NCBI GenBank assembly: GCA_044866775.1
Contig: JBIOUG010000142.1
Location: 1,847 to 65,846, forward strand
Length of the DNA: 64,000 nt
DNA from: Thermoanaerobaculia bacterium
GTDB taxonomy: Bacteria; Acidobacteriota; Thermoanaerobaculia; Multivoradales; UBA5704
Direction: 5' to 3'
Both the position numbers and the translations under genes were made by a program. Shown in pieces: positions 16,101 to 38,904 of the stretch; position 1 is the first letter of the stretch, and each line of letters starts with the position of its first letter. The notes below the pieces were generated by a model, which was given only the letters and a program-made list of their open reading frames with translations, was not told the DNA's origin and did no database searches.

Positions 16101-16441
16101 GTCGGCCGCGAGGCCATGCGCAGGAAGTAGCGCACCAGGCCGTGCTCGGTCCGCGCGCCCTTCTTGCCCTCGGGCTCGCGGTGCCAGTGACCGAGGCTCT
16201 GCACGAGGTCCGGCGAGGCGAGGAAGATCGCCTCGGCGATCTCGGGCCGCTCGAGCAGCGCGCGCAGGCGCTCGCGGAGGAGAGCGCGGTCGCGGGCAAG
16301 CGCCGCGGCCAAGGCGGCCTCGTCGTCCCCGGCCTCGGGGGCCAGCAGGTCCGCGCTCCAGGCCTCGATCTCCTCGAAGGGGAGGAGCGGTGTGCGCAGC
16401 ACGAGGACGCCGGAGGCGGCGTAGTCCTGGTCGAGGCTCAT
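13121..16441 (-). CDS. lanB: class I lanthipeptide dehydratase LanB (full length, N-terminal glutamylation + C-terminal elimination domains)
   Basis: LVLRTPLLPFEE, FLASPDL, YFLRMASRPTPFGLFSG (Lant_dehydr_N) and WFFIRFSDPHWHLRVRF (SpaB_C/Lant_dehydr_C). 1106 aa. The ATG at 16441 overlaps the lanC stop (ATGA). Confidence 0.92.
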   Translation of the reverse strand: MSLDQDYAASGVLVLRTPLLPFEEIEAWSADLLAPEAGDDEAALAAALARDRALLRERLRALLERPEIAEAIFLASPDLVQSLGHWHREPEGKKGARTEHGLVRYFLRMASRPTPFGLFSGCTAGTVGDGRRLAVAERRAYRRHSRLDMDYLFALCDHLTRDAAVRTEILFRPNSSLHAAAGRLRYAEARLAGRLRTYHLVAVDAFDALASTLERAAGGARLRDLAAALVADDPEGEITLDDAEAFLHDLVDNQILLPELALPVTGEESTPGLLRQLAELPPAAAAAERLAGAERALAEIDAGGLGSPAARYGEIARALEPLGVPVEMSRLFQVDLVKPAREVAVDQAVAAEILRGVEILHRVAAAWGGGPLEDFRNTFRDRYGEGREVPLLAALDEESGIGYERSNQAAAEASPLLSGLVFRPRVERPTTAWARREAILLRLLAETLGSGKTEMALGDGDLERLEIPERPPLPDAFHAMATLVAGSPEALERGDFRLIVEHAAGPSGARILGRFCHIDEELRAGVEAHLAAEEALAPDAVFAEIVHLPEGRIGNILARPLLRRYEIPFLGRSGVPPEGQIPADDLLVTVLGERIRLRSRRLGREVVPRLTNAHNTARESLGLYRFLASLQGQGRMGGATWSWGALAAAPFLPRVVTGRLVLSRARWLLLKSDLEPLAKATGAARYRLAQQWRRERRMPRFVALVDGDNELLLDFANPLSLDAVVDLVKSREEVVLTELYPTPDELCAEGPEGRFFHEIVVPFVRRPAAEVAAPRAELSLVEVPPPAARAEPGAAPARTFPPGSAWLYAKLYAGTATADQVLRDEIGPLARRALAAGAADGWFFIRFSDPHWHLRVRFRGAPERLRAEVQPLLEDAFARLLDAGSAWKCQLDTYEREVERYGGDGGIELAEELFFHDSEAVVAMLESLTSDAGADLRWRLILAGMDRLLDDLGYDLEAKQRLAERGRAGVAGRWRHEALREPVADRLRPLRAALERLLAGREGMPEEAQPGLAALARRSAALAPVVAELHARDRRGRLRPQLAEIVPSYVHMFVNRLSRSAGPEHEMVLYDFLVQLYRSQQARARKAGAAAKTTAAPAERLAVTAP

Positions 16442-17697
16442 CGCGCGCCGTTCCCGCTCGACAGCAGCATCACCCGATCCCACGCCGGCTCGACGTCGCT
16501 CACCGCCGCGAGCAGCGCCAGCCCGACGCCGGCCGCGCCGTTCAAGAAGCTGGGGTCGGCCCGCCAGGCGTCGCCGTTGACCGCGTCGCTGATCCAGTTG
16601 AGGTACCCCGCGATGCCCTGCCCCGGGCGCCGGATCGCCAGCGTGTGCTCGAGCCACTCGAGAGCGGCCGCCTTGAGCAGCGGATCGCCGGTCGCGTGGT
16701 GGAGGCGCAGGAACATGTGACTGATGCCGGCGGTGCCGTGGCAGAGACAGGCGTCGACGACCCGTCCGGCCTGGGGCGTCCGCCCCGCCGCGAGATGGGC
16801 GAGGGCGATGGCCTCGCGCTCCCACTCCGGGCGGTCGAAGCTGCGCGCCGCCGCGAGCAGGACGGCGGCGATGCCGAGATCGCCGTAGCACCAGCCGGTG
16901 CGCGACGGCACGGGCTCGGCGTCGGGGATGAGGAAGGCGGGAAACACGGAGTCGCCGCCCGCGGGCAGCCGCTGGGCGAAGAGCCAGCGCACGGCGCCGT
17001 CGGCCAAGCGCGGGAGGCGCGGGTCGTTGACGCCGGCGCGCTGCGCGGCGGCGAGGAAGCCGAGGACGCCGGGGATGCCGTGGGCGACGCCGAGGTTGTA
17101 GCAGCCGTTCCGGAACTGCGGCCGGCGCAGCGAGATCCATTCCGGGATGGTCCACCAGGTACACCCGGCCGCGGTCTCCTGGACCGTCGCCTCGAGGTGG
17201 TCGACGACGCAGGTCAGCAGCTCGCGGGCGTCCGGATGCGGCAGCCGCTCGAGCAGGTAGATGCCGAAGCCCGCGACGCCGCGGACGATCTCGAACGGCA
17301 TGATCGCGCGCCGGTTGGCGAGGAAGGCGCGAAGCGCCGCGTCGATCTCGGTCATGTCGTCGTCGCCGCCGAAGAACTCGCGGGTCAGGTGCGTGCTGAC
17401 CCAGCCGACGCCGCAGAACCCGCTGTAGAGCGACGGCTCGAGCGGAGCGTCGGCCATGGCCTCGATGGCGTCGCCCAGGATGTCGAGCGCGCGCTCGGCG
17501 GCGCCCGCATCGGGCCGTGCCGCCTCGAGGTAGGCGAAGAACAGCGCCAGCCCCATCTTGCCGCCGGAGAGCATCGGGTCCGCCAGGTTGACGTCGGGCA
17601 CGACGGAGGCCACGTCGCCGGCGAGGGCGCGCTCGATCTCCTCGATCGAGGCCCAGGCGCGGCGGCTGGTGTCGGCGTCGGTGATCGGTTGCCACAT
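16438..17697 (-). CDS. lanC: lanthionine cyclase LanC
   Basis: GVAHGIPG, GWCYGDLG and CLCHGTAG are the LanC zinc-ligand and acid/base motifs. ATG at 17697 is preferred (GAGGTGA 6 nt upstream); the track starts at GTG 17706. Confidence 0.92.
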   Translation of the reverse strand: MWQPITDADTSRRAWASIEEIERALAGDVASVVPDVNLADPMLSGGKMGLALFFAYLEAARPDAGAAERALDILGDAIEAMADAPLEPSLYSGFCGVGWVSTHLTREFFGGDDDMTEIDAALRAFLANRRAIMPFEIVRGVAGFGIYLLERLPHPDARELLTCVVDHLEATVQETAAGCTWWTIPEWISLRRPQFRNGCYNLGVAHGIPGVLGFLAAAQRAGVNDPRLPRLADGAVRWLFAQRLPAGGDSVFPAFLIPDAEPVPSRTGWCYGDLGIAAVLLAAARSFDRPEWEREAIALAHLAAGRTPQAGRVVDACLCHGTAGISHMFLRLHHATGDPLLKAAALEWLEHTLAIRRPGQGIAGYLNWISDAVNGDAWRADPSFLNGAAGVGLALLAAVSDVEPAWDRVMLLSSGNGAR

Positions 17698-17723
17698 CGG
17701 TCTCACCTCGAAATTTACGGAGT

Positions 17724-17765
17724 GCCGGCCGGGGCCGCACGGAGCTCGCGGCGGTCCCGGCCGGC
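17724..17765 (-). promoter_or_regulatory. strong intercistronic stem-loop between lanA and lanC
   Basis: GCCGGCCGGG+GCCGC / GCGGC+(ggt bulge)+CCCGGCCGGC gives 15 bp of stem with a 9-nt loop. On the mRNA it is followed by ACUCCGUAAAUUU (weak U tract). Confidence 0.55.
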
Positions 17766-17817
17766 GGAACGCTTCAGGAGAGCTCGCCCGAGCTCAGGCG
17801 GGCTCCCCCGGATCGGC

Positions 17818-18163: not shown

Positions 18164-21472
<3,309 letters not shown>

Positions 21473-21562
21473 GGAACTCCGTTGAGATCGACGAACAGGA
21501 TCGTTTCACGTTATCGACATATACGCACGTCACGAGCTTCGCGTCCAAGCCCGCCGGCTGCC

Positions 21563-21683: not shown

Positions 21684-22397
21684 TCAGTAGCTCTCGCCGG
21701 GCCGAAGCGCCACGACCTCGCAGCGCACGCCGAGGTCCTCGAGCGCCGTCTCGAGCTGCTGCGGGGTGCCGGTCAGGGCCGGGAAGGTGCCCCAGTGGAT
21801 GGGGATGACCTTGCGCACGCCGAGATAGCGGCAGGCGCGCGCCCCCTGGTGCGGGTCCATCGTGTAGAGGTCGCCGATCGGCAGGAAGGCCAGCTCGGGG
21901 CGGTAGAGCTCGCAGATGAGCTGCATGTCGGAGAAGAGCGCGGTGTCGCCGGAATGGTAGAAGGTGAAGCCGCCGGGGAGGCGCACGACGTACCCGGCCG
22001 CCTGGCCGCCGTAGAGGATCTGGTCGCCGTCCTGGATGCCGCAGGAGTGGTCGGCACGCACCATCGTCACCTGCAGGCCGAGCACCTCCTGCGTGCCGCC
22101 GAGGTTCATGCCGGAGCAGTTCTCGACGCCTTTGCTCTCGAGCCAGGCGCAGCACTCGAAGCAGGCGACCACGCGGCGCGGCCGGTGACGCTTGGCGAGC
22201 TCGACGGCGTCGCCGATGTGGTCGAAGTGGGCGTGCGTGACGAGGATCGCGTCGAGGCGGGGGAGCTGCCGCCAGCGCTCGGGGCAGGTCGGGCTCTGGA
22301 GCCAGGGGTCGATGAGCAGGATCTCGCCCCCCGGCAGCTCGCAGTGGACCGTGGCGTGGCCGAGCCAGGTGAACTTCGGTCGCGGATGCTGGTTCAT
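21684..22397 (-). CDS. metal-dependent hydrolase, MBL fold (UPF0173-like)
   Basis: KFTWLGHATV...DAILVTHAHFDHIGD...FYHSGDTALF...IPIHWGTFP. Confidence 0.8.
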   Translation of the reverse strand: MNQHPRPKFTWLGHATVHCELPGGEILLIDPWLQSPTCPERWRQLPRLDAILVTHAHFDHIGDAVELAKRHRPRRVVACFECCAWLESKGVENCSGMNLGGTQEVLGLQVTMVRADHSCGIQDGDQILYGGQAAGYVVRLPGGFTFYHSGDTALFSDMQLICELYRPELAFLPIGDLYTMDPHQGARACRYLGVRKVIPIHWGTFPALTGTPQQLETALEDLGVRCEVVALRPGESY

Positions 22398-22503
22398 CGC
22401 GGGTCCCCTGTTGCGCGCGTGGACCGCGATCATACTCGCCCCAAACGCGAGCGGCCGGGGTTGCCCCCGGCCGCGGCGGACTACGTCAGGGAACGGCTGG
22501 TTC

Positions 22504-22851
22504 TCAGATGTTGAACTGGCGCAAGAAGTTCTCGCGCAGCTTCTGGTTGAACTGATGGTCCGTCAGCCGGTAGTAGATGGTCTGCGCGTCACGCCGCGGC
22601 GCCACGAGGCCGTAGGCCTTGAGCTTCGCGAGGTGCTGGGAGACGGCGGAGACGGAGACTCCGAGCATCTCGGCCAGGTCGCAGACGCACAGCTCTTTCA
22701 TGTTCTCGAGCAGATAGAGGAGCTTGAGCCGGGTGGAGTTCCCGGCCAGGTTCATCAGCTCCGCCGCTTCCTCGATGTCCGGTGTGCCCTCGAGCTGGGC
22801 ACGCATGTGGGCCATCTCCTTCTGGGTCATGGTGGGCGCCTCGCCTTTCAT
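22504..22851 (-). CDS. ArsR/SmtB-family metalloregulator
   Basis: TRLKLLYLLENMKELCVCDLAEMLGVSVSAVSQHLAKLKAYGLV is a wHTH with the ELCVCDL metal(loid)-sensing motif. Confidence 0.85.
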   Translation of the reverse strand: MKGEAPTMTQKEMAHMRAQLEGTPDIEEAAELMNLAGNSTRLKLLYLLENMKELCVCDLAEMLGVSVSAVSQHLAKLKAYGLVAPRRDAQTIYYRLTDHQFNQKLRENFLRQFNI

Positions 22852-33577: not shown

Positions 33578-34069
33578 GTGGGTTCCGTGCAGAGAATCGC
33601 GCTGCGCTTCGTCAAGTGGGGGACGGGACTCCTGGCGCTGGGCGTCTGGACGGGCTACGGCCCGCTCCATCACTACCTGCACGGCGGCGTCGAGGTGGCC
33701 TGCCCGTGGGCGCCCGTCCATGGCCACGTCGTGCTCCTCGGCTGGGTCGGCTTCACCCTCTTCGGCCTGGTCTACCGCGCGCTGCCGGACTGGGGCACGC
33801 CCGGCCCGAACGCGGGCAAGCTCGCCGCCGCCCATTTCTGGCTGTCGCTCCTGTCCGTCCTCGGAGTCTGGGCGAACGGGATCTTCGGCTACCGCTACCT
33901 CGACTCCCTGTCGCCGAGCTTCTACTACCGCCCCGACACCGAGAAGCTGCAGCTCTGGCTGTCGATCGACGGCCTGTTCCTGACCCTCTTCGCGGTCGGC
34001 AGCATCCTCTTCCTGATCGTCGTCTTCGGCAGCATGGACTACCGGCGCGACGACGCGGCGGCGCCGTAG
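33578..34069 (+). CDS. hypothetical integral membrane protein (about 4 TM, His-rich loop)
   Basis: Hydrophobic segments are GLLALGVWTGYGPL, VVLLGWVGFTLFGLVY, FWLSLLSVLGVWANGIF and GLFLTLFAVGSILFLIVVF. GTG start. Confidence 0.5.
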   Translation: MGSVQRIALRFVKWGTGLLALGVWTGYGPLHHYLHGGVEVACPWAPVHGHVVLLGWVGFTLFGLVYRALPDWGTPGPNAGKLAAAHFWLSLLSVLGVWANGIFGYRYLDSLSPSFYYRPDTEKLQLWLSIDGLFLTLFAVGSILFLIVVFGSMDYRRDDAAAP

Positions 34070-34155: not shown

Positions 34156-34818
34156 GTGGACCAAGACGAACGCGCGCAGCGCCGGCAGTCACGGACGATT
34201 GTCTTGGCAGCGTTGATTGGGGCGATAGGAGCCGTTCTTGCCGCGGTCGCTGGACACTGGCAGGGCCGGGAACAGGGGGCCGACCAGCAGGTGGACCTGC
34301 AGAATCAATTGGACGCAAGCTCCGCCGAAATAGCCGAGCTGCGGAAGGCGCTCGCGGAGCAGGCGCAGAATGTCGCCGCGCTCCAGGAGAGGCTCAAGCA
34401 AGCGAGGCGCGATCCCTCGATCGTGCCGGGTAATTCGAACCCCGGCCCTCAAGCGTCTGAGCAAGTCGAGAAGCTCGTCAGCAACTATCGCTTCGTGCTT
34501 CGAGGATGTAGCGCTGAAGGCTCCAATATCGTCTGCTCGTTCGTCGTTACGAATCTCGCGGGCGATCGGGACTTCGAGCTCTCCTATCAATCGGGCATGA
34601 TCGACGGTGCCGGCGAACCGCATCAGGCTGAGCGAATCTTTGCCGGTAGGGAGCTCCGCGCGTCCAACGCGGGCATCCACCTGGTCACCGGTGTCGCCAC
34701 GGCCTTCTCCTTCAGGTTCGAAGGCTTGGCAGCGAGCGTACGCGACATCGCGCTGCTGGAGGTCAAGTCGAGAGGGTTTTCCGTCCAATGGCGCGGTGTT
34801 CCGGTGACGAATGCCTGA
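34156..34818 (+). CDS. hypothetical membrane-anchored coiled-coil protein
   Basis: GTG start after GGGGGA. One TM (IVLAALIGAIGAVLAAVAG), then a coiled-coil (LDASSAEIAELRKALAEQAQNVAALQERLKQA). Noticeably lower GC than its neighbours. Confidence 0.5.
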   Translation: MDQDERAQRRQSRTIVLAALIGAIGAVLAAVAGHWQGREQGADQQVDLQNQLDASSAEIAELRKALAEQAQNVAALQERLKQARRDPSIVPGNSNPGPQASEQVEKLVSNYRFVLRGCSAEGSNIVCSFVVTNLAGDRDFELSYQSGMIDGAGEPHQAERIFAGRELRASNAGIHLVTGVATAFSFRFEGLAASVRDIALLEVKSRGFSVQWRGVPVTNA

Positions 34819-34950
34819 AAAGATGTTTTGGACACGGCGTCTAATCCTGGCCAGGGTCGGTCTGCACCCGCGCCGGCTCCTGAGTTTCAGAGCCCACTGC
34901 TCGCGCCTGCCACCGTCTGCAGCGAGGTGAGCGCCCTCCGCTCTGCCCGC

Positions 34951-35625
34951 TCAACGCAGAGCCCAGAACGCGCCGCCGAGGCCGAGCTGAGTGAAGAGCG
35001 CCTCGGTCTCCTCGAGGGTGCGCCGGCGCCACGCCGGATTGCGGCGGTCGGCGGCGTACCAGGCGCGCGCCAGCTCCCATGCCGTCTGCAGCGCGAGCAG
35101 GGCGCCGCGTTCCATGCTCCACTGCCGGCACCAGTGATCCACGTGCTCTTCCGACCGGAAGAGGAGCATCGTCCGTCAGGTGAAGACGATGTCCTCCCAC
35201 CAGCGCCGCGCCGGGACGGCGAAGTGGACGAGGCCCGCGGCTGGTTGCAGCGCGCCGTCCTCGACCGCGAGCGGCATCGCCGACCCGCAGCAGCCGCAGC
35301 TCGCGAGGATCCGCCCGTCGCTCCCGAGCATCGCCGGGACGCCGAGGGCGTCCCAGATGCAGTTGCCGAAGTACAGGCGCCCCGCCGCCTCGACCGCGAA
35401 CGGCGTCGGCACGGCCGAGAACGGATTGGCCATCAGCACCTCGCCGGCGCCGGGCTGGAGGACCAGCACCCGTCCGGCGGCCAGCCGCTCGAAGGCGGCA
35501 AGGACGTCGCTCGGCTCGATCCCGAGCCGCTCGGCGACCTCGGCGGCGAGCGGTGGCCGGCCGCTGTCGATCGTTGCGGCGTACACTTCGCGCCGGACTT
35601 CGCGGTCGAGCTCTTCGGGTGTCAT
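34951..35625 (-). CDS. MerB (alkylmercury lyase)-family protein with in-frame TGA (35176..35178) at the catalytic Cys159 position; candidate selenoprotein
   Basis: ORFs 35176..35625 and 34951..35169 share one frame and are separated by TGA plus 2 codons. GNCIWDALG corresponds to the MerB Cys96/Asp99 motif. WWEDIVFT[U]RTMLLFRSEEHVDHW aligns to MerB SFCCHVHFFAS...W. A SECIS-like hairpin follows. Confidence 0.7.
35146..35163 (-). promoter_or_regulatory. bacterial SECIS-like stem-loop downstream of the UGA in the merB-like gene
   Basis: mRNA CUCUUCC-GGUC-GGAAGAG (7-bp stem). The loop begins 20 nt after the UGA. Confidence 0.6.
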
Positions 35626-37839: not shown

Positions 37840-38904
37840 TTAGATCTCCCGATACAGCCAGCGCCGTAGCGGGGCGAGCCGCTCGGCGACGCTGTCCCAC
37901 TCCGGATCGATGTGCCAGAGCGCCGCGGCGATCGAGGAGAGGAGGGAGTTGCCGTCCTGGGGCGTGAAGCAGAAGCCGTAGACCTCGCGGCCGTTGCGCA
38001 CCATGAGGGTCGGCATGACGACCACCGTCTGCGACAGGATGCGCCCGTAGTAGCCGTGGTCGCGGCCGAAGCTGAAGATCAGATTGGCGTAGCGCTTGTC
38101 GGTGATCGCCACCCGCGGGTTCTCGCGCAGCCGCTGCTTGATCTCGTCGAGCGTCATGTCGCGCTCGAGCTCGAGGTTGAACCAGATCGAGTGCATGTAC
38201 TGGGTGTTGAGCTTGGCCGCGCTCGAGAAGAGGTTGAGGTCCATGCCCATGGTCTCGAAGACGTGGTGGGCGTCGTGCGCGTGGTGGGTGCCGAACTCGG
38301 GGTCGTCGTGCTTGCCGACGTTGGGGGCCGGGACGAAGCTGTTGGTCTGGCTGATGTCGTTCGCCCGCCGCATGCAGACGAAGGTCGCCTTGCGCAGGTT
38401 GAAGGTGCCCGTGCCGTCGTCGCACACGGTCTTGATCAGCGTCGTGATGTTGTGCGTGTTGCAGGAGACGATCTGGATGAAGCGGTCCTCGCCCGCCACC
38501 AGCACCTCGTCGTTGACGCCGCGGGCGTAGGGCTTGCCGAACCCGAACTCGCTGCCCTGGGCGAGGTAGCCCTTGGGGCCGGAGAGGTGGGCGTAGTACT
38601 TCTCCTTGTTGTCGTTGCCGGCCGGCGTGCAGTCGATGACCACGGTCGCCCGCTCGAGCGCCTCGCGCGACGCGTAGCTCACCTCGTGGCCGAGCTTCTC
38701 GAAGGCCCCGCGCACCTCGTCGTCGACGGCCAGCTTGGCGCCGCGGCTCATCAGGTGGTTGAGCTTGGCGCGGTCGGACTCGAGCGGCGTCCGCTTGTGG
38801 AAGGTGACCTCGTCGATCCCCATCTTGTCGCGGAAGTCGGTGAAGAGGCCGATGAGCGGCTCGCCGATCGTGCCGGTGCCCACGATGTGGACGATCTTCT
38901 TCAT
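37840..38904 (-). CDS. type II (archaeal-type) glyceraldehyde-3-phosphate dehydrogenase-like NAD(P) oxidoreductase
   Basis: MKKIVHIVGTGTIGEP (Rossmann), IVSCNTHNI (catalytic Cys, cf. archaeal VVSCNTTGL), GTHHAHDA (cf. PSHHGPDV). Confidence 0.65.
   Translation of the reverse strand: MKKIVHIVGTGTIGEPLIGLFTDFRDKMGIDEVTFHKRTPLESDRAKLNHLMSRGAKLAVDDEVRGAFEKLGHEVSYASREALERATVVIDCTPAGNDNKEKYYAHLSGPKGYLAQGSEFGFGKPYARGVNDEVLVAGEDRFIQIVSCNTHNITTLIKTVCDDGTGTFNLRKATFVCMRRANDISQTNSFVPAPNVGKHDDPEFGTHHAHDAHHVFETMGMDLNLFSSAAKLNTQYMHSIWFNLELERDMTLDEIKQRLRENPRVAITDKRYANLIFSFGRDHGYYGRILSQTVVVMPTLMVRNGREVYGFCFTPQDGNSLLSSIAAALWHIDPEWDSVAERLAPLRRWLYREI

Follow-up and report, generated by a model that had tools for sequence, protein, structure and literature searches.

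A 64,000-nt stretch of contig JBIOUG010000142.1 from a Thermoanaerobaculia bacterium (hereafter the window) was found to carry, on its minus strand at 34951..35625, what is very probably a single gene for a 224-residue selenoprotein of the MerB fold, with selenocysteine (Sec) predicted at an in-frame UGA codon. This codon, the 150th of the gene, almost certainly inserts Sec at a metal-binding catalytic position, to judge from comparison with related loci. The protein is proposed to act on organometals, with Sec in the place that Cys159 holds in the organomercurial lyase MerB.

Conservation of the UGA codon and of the active site

On the minus strand, two open reading frames (ORFs) of 149 aa (35176..35625) and 72 aa (34951..35169) share one reading frame, with the TGA at 35176..35178 and two sense codons, CGG and ACG, between them. 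Joined, they give a product of 224 aa, as the original prediction, which was made from the window sequence alone, had described. The proposed homology to MerB was borne out by the Pfam family PF03243, whose match spans the TGA from aa 69 to aa 190 (E=5.2e-31, 107.7 bits compared with a gathering cutoff of 27). The sequence around the UGA reads FT-[TGA]-RTMLLFRS, and a GNCIWDALG motif lies upstream of it. For the N-terminal domain, Pfam gave weak matches to HTH_20 and Sigma70_r3, both below cutoff. A scan of the window for other genes with an in-frame TGA and a coding signal on both sides returned none except the MerB-like gene.

One genome per GTDB species was scanned, and at least 559 loci with a relative were obtained, of which the best 80 were kept; with the window gene, these form the set of 81 genes used throughout. 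The tblastn homology in the 80 loci extends over residues about 2-224 of the joined protein. The loci span at least eight phyla and include Acidobacteriota (Thermoanaerobaculia, Blastocatellia, Vicinamibacterales and Bryobacterales), as well as Chloroflexota, Actinomycetota, Gemmatimonadota, Armatimonadota, Eremiobacterota, Dormibacterota, Myxococcota and Proteobacteria. The same column holds TGA in 80 of 80 loci and in the window gene (81/81), and never TAA or TAG. Since the true terminators of these genes use all three stops (TGA 48, TAG 20, TAA 12), composition does not explain why the internal site holds TGA alone. Downstream of the UGA, the frame remains open for 70-77 codons in 77 of the 81 genes and has a conserved end, ...FW-L-R, and the mean identity to the window protein is 57% after the UGA compared with 53% before it. 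In the window, UGA is also an ordinary stop, ending 14 other confident genes and the MerB-like gene itself.

The locus, considered alone, resembles a split gene, and its TGA is one nucleotide away from the Cys codons TGC and TGT, as would be expected of a pseudogene or of a sequencing error. This explanation is effectively refuted by the recurrence of the same TGA in each of the 80 independent loci, which come from different phyla and assemblies, by the purifying selection downstream of it (the 57% identity in an intact frame) and by the dedicated RNA hairpin that follows it. The view that this is one gene, neither split nor decayed, was thus upheld by the invariant TGA column, the open downstream frame and the conserved C-terminal part. 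Across the set, the alignments show the codon-150 UGA to be a conserved, site-specific recoding signal and not a terminator.

The family profile was also compared with 1.84 billion cluster representatives (clusters at 50% identity), which gave 4034 relatives at E<=1e-3 and 360 at E<=1e-30. Among the best 150 representatives, 90 end exactly before the UGA column and 43 have Cys in it, and the expected alternation between Cys and UGA was thereby recovered; the rest have Trp (2), Ala (2), Tyr (1), Pro (1) or His (1) or are fragments (10). The full-length Cys forms P0113, P0191, P0192 and P0043 align residue for residue. The plasmid collection yielded distant Cys-type relatives only, at ~31% identity, for example on Ralstonia megaplasmids.

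With regard to the active site, a profile hidden Markov model (HMM) of the 81 genes places the UGA column on Cys159 of MerB (R831b numbering, PDB 1S6L), in agreement with the register of the original prediction, while Cys160 falls on the following Lys/Arg. The same column corresponds to the single equivalent Cys of MerB2 (PDB 5C17), in an alignment free of gaps. A pairwise phmmer alignment had placed the UGA on Cys160 by means of a one-residue gap; this register was dropped, as both the profile and the gap-free MerB2 alignment give Cys159. In the profile, Cys89 and Asp92 align to Cys96 and Asp99 of MerB, which confirms that GNCIWDALG is the counterpart of the Cys96/Asp99 motif.

Conservation of these positions is close to complete, with Cys89 found in 81/81 genes, Asp92 in 80/81 and Sec150 in 81/81. 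The UGA is preceded by T (50 genes), N (27), A (2) or S (2), and never by C. Two further cysteines form a CxxC knuckle, Cys110 (81/81), which aligns to MerB Cys117, and Cys113 (79/81), which has no MerB Cys counterpart; the knuckle is a candidate for metal hand-off or for a structural metal site. The Sec clade also possesses His134, which is absent from MerB. A subgroup of Cys forms (P0316, P0322, P0327, P0330, P0351 and others) has Cys in place of Asp92, resulting in C-x-x-C, and lacks Cys110 and Cys113, which suggests another metal site and probably another activity.

The fold was modelled on the Cys homologue P0113 in place of the window protein. The AlphaFold (AF2) model has a mean confidence score (pLDDT) of 92 and a predicted TM-score (pTM) of 0.86, and shows three helices in the N-terminal domain. 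Its top 11 PDB matches in Foldseek, which are the sole significant ones, are all MerB2 or MerB (TM 0.57-0.74). They are followed by winged helix-turn-helix (wHTH) regulators such as MntR, DtxR and LexA, in line with the nature of the N-terminal domain.

The hairpin downstream of the UGA

Exactly 12 nt after the UGA starts a hairpin with a 7-bp stem and a GGUC loop, resembling a selenocysteine insertion sequence (SECIS). It had been described from the window sequence at this very position, and it proved to be conserved and covarying. In an alignment of 54 nt from the UGA (U of UGA = 1), the stem nucleotides 16-22 and 27-33 and the loop nucleotides 23-26 are nearly invariant across the 81 genes. 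Pairing is retained in 89.7% of the stem cells, compared with 45-62% when the partner columns are slid. The closing pair is CG in 60 genes, UA in 9 and AU in 5, and pair 16-33 also occurs as GC, AU and UA. In total, 22 cells show a compensatory double change, a value reached in 0 of 500 shuffles. The closing pair is informative because it joins the first base of an Arg/Trp codon to the synonymous third base of a Ser codon.

Synonymous positions are similarly constrained. The third-position entropy is 0.38 bits in the hairpin codons 155-160 compared with 1.35 bits in 77 other conserved codons, and codons 155, 156, 157 and 160 have the lowest four synonymous-site entropies in the gene. CGG is used for 63 of 70 Arg codons in the hairpin, and the two Glu are encoded by GAA and then GAG, whereas Leu154, just outside the stem, has a third-position entropy of 1.83 bits. 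The Cys form P0113 encodes the same LFRSEE peptide as CTG TTT CGC TCC GAG GAG, without a hairpin, so that the hairpin is tied to the UGA and not to the peptide.

The model of bacterial SECIS elements (bSECIS) specifies a loop of 3-9 nt, a stem of 4-16 bp, a G in the first two loop positions, a UGA-to-loop distance of 16-37 nt and a minimum free energy of at most -7.5 kcal/mol (PMC13188914). The window hairpin agrees with all four bSECIS criteria, with a loop of 4 nt, a stem of 7 bp, a spacing of 19 nt and an energy of -9.1 kcal/mol, and with G within loop positions 1-2. It also resembles the SECIS of Escherichia coli fdhF, which likewise lies within the coding sequence directly 3' of the Sec-UGA and has an identical GGUC tetraloop, as confirmed across 5419 genomes of E. 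coli. The fdhF loop spans nt 22-25 and that of the window gene nt 23-26, 1 nt further from the UGA. The window hairpin differs from that of fdhF in its stem sequence and in the absence of a bulged U in the upper stem; binding by SelB is predicted. At gathering thresholds, Rfam found no family in the window and, around the related locus L044, none at E<=1; no bacterial SECIS family was returned.

The UGA might also be read through without Sec, by a near-cognate tRNA (Trp, Cys or Arg) or under a variant genetic code. Two rare relatives could be cited in its favour: P0003 (L085:998-1648), in which TGG (Trp) replaces the Sec-UGA while 7/7 hairpin pairs and the GGUC loop are kept, and P0021 (L086:68-775), in which GGA (Gly) replaces it while 6/7 pairs and the loop are kept. 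These two genes represent either very recent Sec losses or assembly errors. Read-through of this kind is nevertheless very unlikely, given that UGA terminates the 14 other confident window genes and the MerB-like gene, that the hairpin fits a SelB-type SECIS down to the loop sequence of fdhF, and that the column holds Cys, the analogue of Sec, in 43 homologues and Trp in 2.

The conserved Met153 codon, an AUG located 6 nt after the UGA (35167-35169), calls for separate consideration. It is kept in 78 of the 81 Sec-form genes, with A10 and U11 invariant, while the corresponding position is variable (M, I or L) in the Cys forms, and this stretch (nt 10-14) could be part of a lower SECIS stem or a re-initiation site. 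In the latter case, the UGA would be a real terminator and two polypeptides (1-149 and 153-224) would be made, the second through coupled re-initiation, as would also follow from the two ORFs that gene callers everywhere report. This is highly improbable, as TGA is found in 81/81 genes although their terminators use all three stops, the single-chain homologues have Cys at the column, and the hairpin covaries and is specifically lost in the Cys forms. In addition, the two chains would be without the catalytic residue 150, and no Shine-Dalgarno motif precedes AUG153. Sec insertion at the UGA is the reading followed below; the positions of the gene and its parts are collected in Table 1.

Table 1 Window coordinates of the MerB-like selenoprotein gene and its parts
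Feature	Position	Strand	Remarks
Complete gene, MerB-family selenoprotein (predicted)	34951..35625	-	224 codons including one Sec-UGA; from translation, Pfam and tblastn
N-terminal winged-helix-like domain	35446..35625	-	roughly residues 1-60
MerB catalytic domain	35056..35421	-	PF03243 match, aa 69-190
NCIWD motif, codons Cys89-Ile-Trp-Asp92	35350..35361	-	MerB Cys96 and Asp99
CxxC knuckle, codons Cys110-Gly-Cys-Cys113	35287..35298	-	SCGCCG in the window gene, often SCxDCG in relatives
In-frame UGA, codon 150, predicted to be read as Sec	35176..35178	-	column of MerB Cys159
SECIS-type hairpin	35146..35163	-	encodes L155-F-R-S-E-E160
Hairpin 5' arm	35163..35157	-	CUCUUCC
Hairpin loop	35156..35153	-	GGUC
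Hairpin 3' arm	35152..35146	-	GGAAGAG
Terminal TGA	34951..34953	-	

Relation to known MerB-like proteins and proposed activity

A MerB-like selenoprotein has been described previously, namely SaoL, whose Sec162 superposes on MerB Cys159 (Haft & Gwadz, bioRxiv 10.1101/2022.07.06.499078; J Bacteriol 2023). In databases, SaoL is truncated at a Cys-Sec dipeptide; it is the marker of a nine-gene SAO locus found in 52 species, all strict anaerobes. Rare Cys variants exist, and the authors doubt its substrate (10.1101/2022.07.06.499078). Two reviews give SaoL as the only MerB-like selenoprotein, and Zhang-lab reviews equate the 'alkylmercury lyase MerB-like protein', with a CU motif and WP_238493467.1 as example, with SaoL. 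The novelty suggested in the original prediction was accordingly upheld in one part only: the clade of the window gene is unannotated as a selenoprotein, its RefSeq member WP_411277553.1 being cut at the UGA, whereas Sec at the Cys159 position is not unprecedented, given that SaoL has been published.

SaoL (NCBIfam NF040728) and the window protein share the MerB fold, one UGA-encoded Sec at MerB Cys159 and the equivalents of Cys96 and Asp99. Nevertheless, the window gene is not SaoL. It scores 34.1 bits compared with a cutoff of 140, in a match limited to aa 7-126; Sec is preceded by T, N, A or S in all 81 genes, so that there is no CU dipeptide; and the 81 loci have no neighbour family in common, where SaoL has the nine genes of its SAO locus (SaoB, P, X, E, C, T and others). 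In contrast to the strictly anaerobic hosts of SaoL, the clade occurs mostly in soil and groundwater Acidobacteriota, Chloroflexota, Gaiellaceae, Gemmatimonadota and others. It is also far larger (at least 559 species genomes; 360 clusters at 50% identity at E<=1e-30) and has the extra CxxC knuckle. On the basis of these comparisons, we assign the window protein to a distinct, much larger and unannotated clade of putative Sec-containing MerB-fold proteins.

Canonical MerB (R831b; PDB 3F0P, 1S6L) and MerB2 (Bacillus megaterium, PDB 5C17) share with the window protein PF03243, the N-terminal winged-helix-like domain, the overall fold (TM 0.57-0.74, for the Cys homologue model), the Cys-x-x-Asp motif and the position of the second metal ligand. 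The window protein differs from MerB, to which it is ~20% identical, in having Sec for Cys159, no Cys160, and Cys113 in addition to Cys110, the equivalent of Cys117. It differs from MerB2 in that its family keeps Asp where MerB2 has Ser. It is not a canonical MerB, as neither the NCBIfam equivalog scores nor the gene context, both given below, are those of one. Peng et al. (2016, ISME J, Table S3) included among their selenoprotein families one named 'organic mercuric lyase MerB2', with 17 organisms; like the clade described here, it is a MerB-family selenoprotein, found through Sec/Cys homology searches. The organisms of that family may overlap with this clade, and an earlier sighting is thus possible. 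The text of the GOS 2008 paper and of its supplements, in so far as it was accessible, contains no mention of MerB or mercury.

In MerB, Cys96 and Cys159 bind Hg, and Asp99 is the proton donor to the leaving carbon. At neutral pH, a selenolate is fully ionised, and it is a softer and stronger Hg ligand than a thiolate. By analogy with MerB and with established bacterial Sec decoding, the following mechanism can be proposed for the window protein. SelB with Sec-tRNA(Sec) would bind the hairpin while the ribosome stands at the UGA, resulting in the insertion of selenocysteine; without selenium, translation would halt after residue 149 and yield an inactive fragment. The Cys89 thiolate and the Sec150 selenolate would hold an organometal between them, in the simplest case an organomercurial, for instance methylmercury. 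Asp92 would then protonate the carbon, upon which the hydrocarbon would be released and the metal ion would stay on the Cys/Sec pair. The selenolate would be expected to make capture and Hg-C activation faster and the release of the product, Hg(II), harder.

The assignment of organomercurials as the substrate class, and of organomercurial lyase activity (EC 4.99.1.2), is tentative: drawn by analogy with MerB, it has at best close to an even chance of being correct. A Sec protein of the MerB fold might instead have another physiological role, acting on organotin, organolead or organoarsenic compounds or on an unknown natural compound, serving as a trap or chaperone for Hg or another soft metal, or using Cys/Sec and the CxxC for redox chemistry. 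We consider this a genuine possibility, though a doubtful one. The distribution of the family, in at least 559 species genomes of ordinary soil lineages, fits a housekeeping role better than resistance; the invariant CxxC and His134 are additions that MerB does not have; and for SaoL, Haft & Gwadz voice the same doubt about the substrate. The low equivalog scores and the surroundings of the gene, to which we return below, point in the same direction. Conversely, the catalytic triad is almost invariant (the counts for Cys89, Asp92 and Sec150 are given above), Asp is the residue that in MerB donates the proton for C-Hg protonolysis and that a pure metal trap would not need, and the gene context suggests no alternative substrate.

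Several points weigh against a selenium-dependent organomercurial lyase. As regards the activity, the window protein remains far below the cutoffs of the NCBIfam MerB equivalogs NF009710 (40 bits compared with 193) and NF033555 (32 compared with 200), which casts doubt on the substrate. Neither merA, merR, merT nor merP was found near the window gene, and the relatives are never beside mer genes either. All-against-all clustering of the ORFs within +/-10 kb of the 81 loci returned no shared neighbour family. Moreover, a Hg-Se bond at the product stage could render turnover slow or stoichiometric.

As regards selenium, its incorporation is predicted from comparative data. Folding of the single window sequence compared with shuffles gave z = -0.67, which is not significant; the hairpin can thus not be argued from the window sequence alone, and the case for it rests on the comparative data. 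Met153 leaves re-initiation as a formal possibility. Searches for selA, selB, selC and selD were negative for the 64-kb window and for the related loci (1.24 Mb), in which motif scans for SelD, SelA and SelB returned EF-Tu only. With ARAGORN, the window gave no tRNA at all, and 60 loci gave no tRNA-Sec. The Sec competence of the source genome is therefore assumed, with support from cultured members of the same phyla: Peng et al. (2016, Table S2) record Sec-decoding genes (SelA, SelB and SelD) for cultured representatives of Acidobacteria, Chloroflexi, Rubrobacter and Myxococcales. Their table also contains several genomes in which complete Sec machinery is accompanied by 0 known selenoproteins, among them those of Terriglobus saanensis, Acidobacteriaceae KBS 89 and Dyadobacter spp. 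Unrecognised families such as the clade of the window gene might explain such genomes.

Genomic surroundings, annotation and significance

The MerB-like gene is a stand-alone gene, outside any mer operon or SAO locus. Its neighbours in the window include genes for an RlmD-like methyltransferase and a protein of the MBL fold. Additional clusters of seemingly conserved neighbours turned out to be antisense shadows of the MerB-like gene itself, and a promoter and terminator scan around the gene found nothing. A 96-nt 'tRNA-Phe' reported by ARAGORN directly upstream of one homologue (L044:9869-9964) is a false positive, being located within an ORF for a membrane protein and unmatched in Rfam.

Directly 3' of the gene, the G+C content drops to 58-65% (34300-34900), compared with a window value of 72%. 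Converging on the selenoprotein gene is a plus-strand ORF that ends at 34818 and encodes a transmembrane segment, a coiled coil and a beta-rich domain. This stretch, or the converging ORF, may have been acquired from elsewhere. Further along, 33578-34066 (+) encodes a 163-aa membrane protein with a short internal COX1 match only (36 bits), an unusually small COX1-like protein. The ORF at 37840-38904 (-), of 354-373 aa, has a G+C content at third codon positions (GC3) of 0.95 and a Rossmann-like N-terminus, IVGTGTIGEPL, and no Pfam match at E<=0.001.

An ArsR/SmtB-family regulator with a CVC metal-sensing motif (22504-22830, -) lies directly upstream of an MBL-fold hydrolase gene (21684-22562, -). 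No other metal-related regulator was seen in the window, and this one is unlinked to the MerB-like gene. Finally, a LanC-like lanthionine cyclase (Pfam LANC_like, 126 bits; 16438-17793, -) adjoins a 1114-aa ABC-transporter-like ORF (18164-21505, -), whose Cys-containing N-terminal region resembles a C39 peptidase; together, these two ORFs may constitute a lanthipeptide gene cluster.

In the protein database, about 115 of the best 120 matches to the joined protein have lengths of 144-156 aa and extend over no more than its first two thirds, and these short matches all end in ...WW-D-I-V-[FY]-x. Among the truncated NCBI records are the RefSeq entry WP_411277553.1, 'organomercurial lyase [Gaiella sp.]' of 147 aa, MFP5286839.1, MGH7336062.1 and HWG55804.1, and a further truncated relative, MBW3566293.1, is named 'GntR family transcriptional regulator'. 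Queries with the C-terminal part returned only orphan ORFs of ~72 aa and no full-length entry annotated with Sec, and no NCBIfam model claims the window gene. That annotation pipelines would split the gene had been anticipated, and public records, RefSeq included, do end at the UGA, at ~147-155 aa. Thousands of entries are cut to 147-155 aa in this way, under names such as 'organomercurial lyase', 'hypothetical protein' or 'GntR regulator', and are accompanied by orphans of ~72 aa; a single Sec-aware family model would correct them.

The clade extends the use of Sec in place of Cys159 from the ~50 anaerobes of SaoL to at least 559 species genomes, mostly from soil and groundwater, which alters the view of Sec in dealing with soft metals. 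In its boldest form, the proposal is that of a stand-alone selenium-dependent methylmercury lyase outside the mer operon, which would found a very large, missed selenoprotein family, possibly among the commonest selenoproteins of soil Acidobacteriota, Chloroflexota and Gaiellales. We regard the proposal in this full form as unlikely, but its consequences would be considerable. If the proteins demethylate methylmercury, surveys using merB as marker overlook a major selenium-dependent demethylation capacity, and the availability of selenium would gate microbial methylmercury demethylation in soils. The family would also provide an enzymatic basis for the antagonism between selenium and mercury, which might end in the formation of HgSe, and it could explain genomes that possess Sec machinery but few or no known selenoproteins. 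The natural Sec/Cys pairs at a metal-ligating catalytic residue offer a clean test of the part played by selenium in C-metal protonolysis and in product release.

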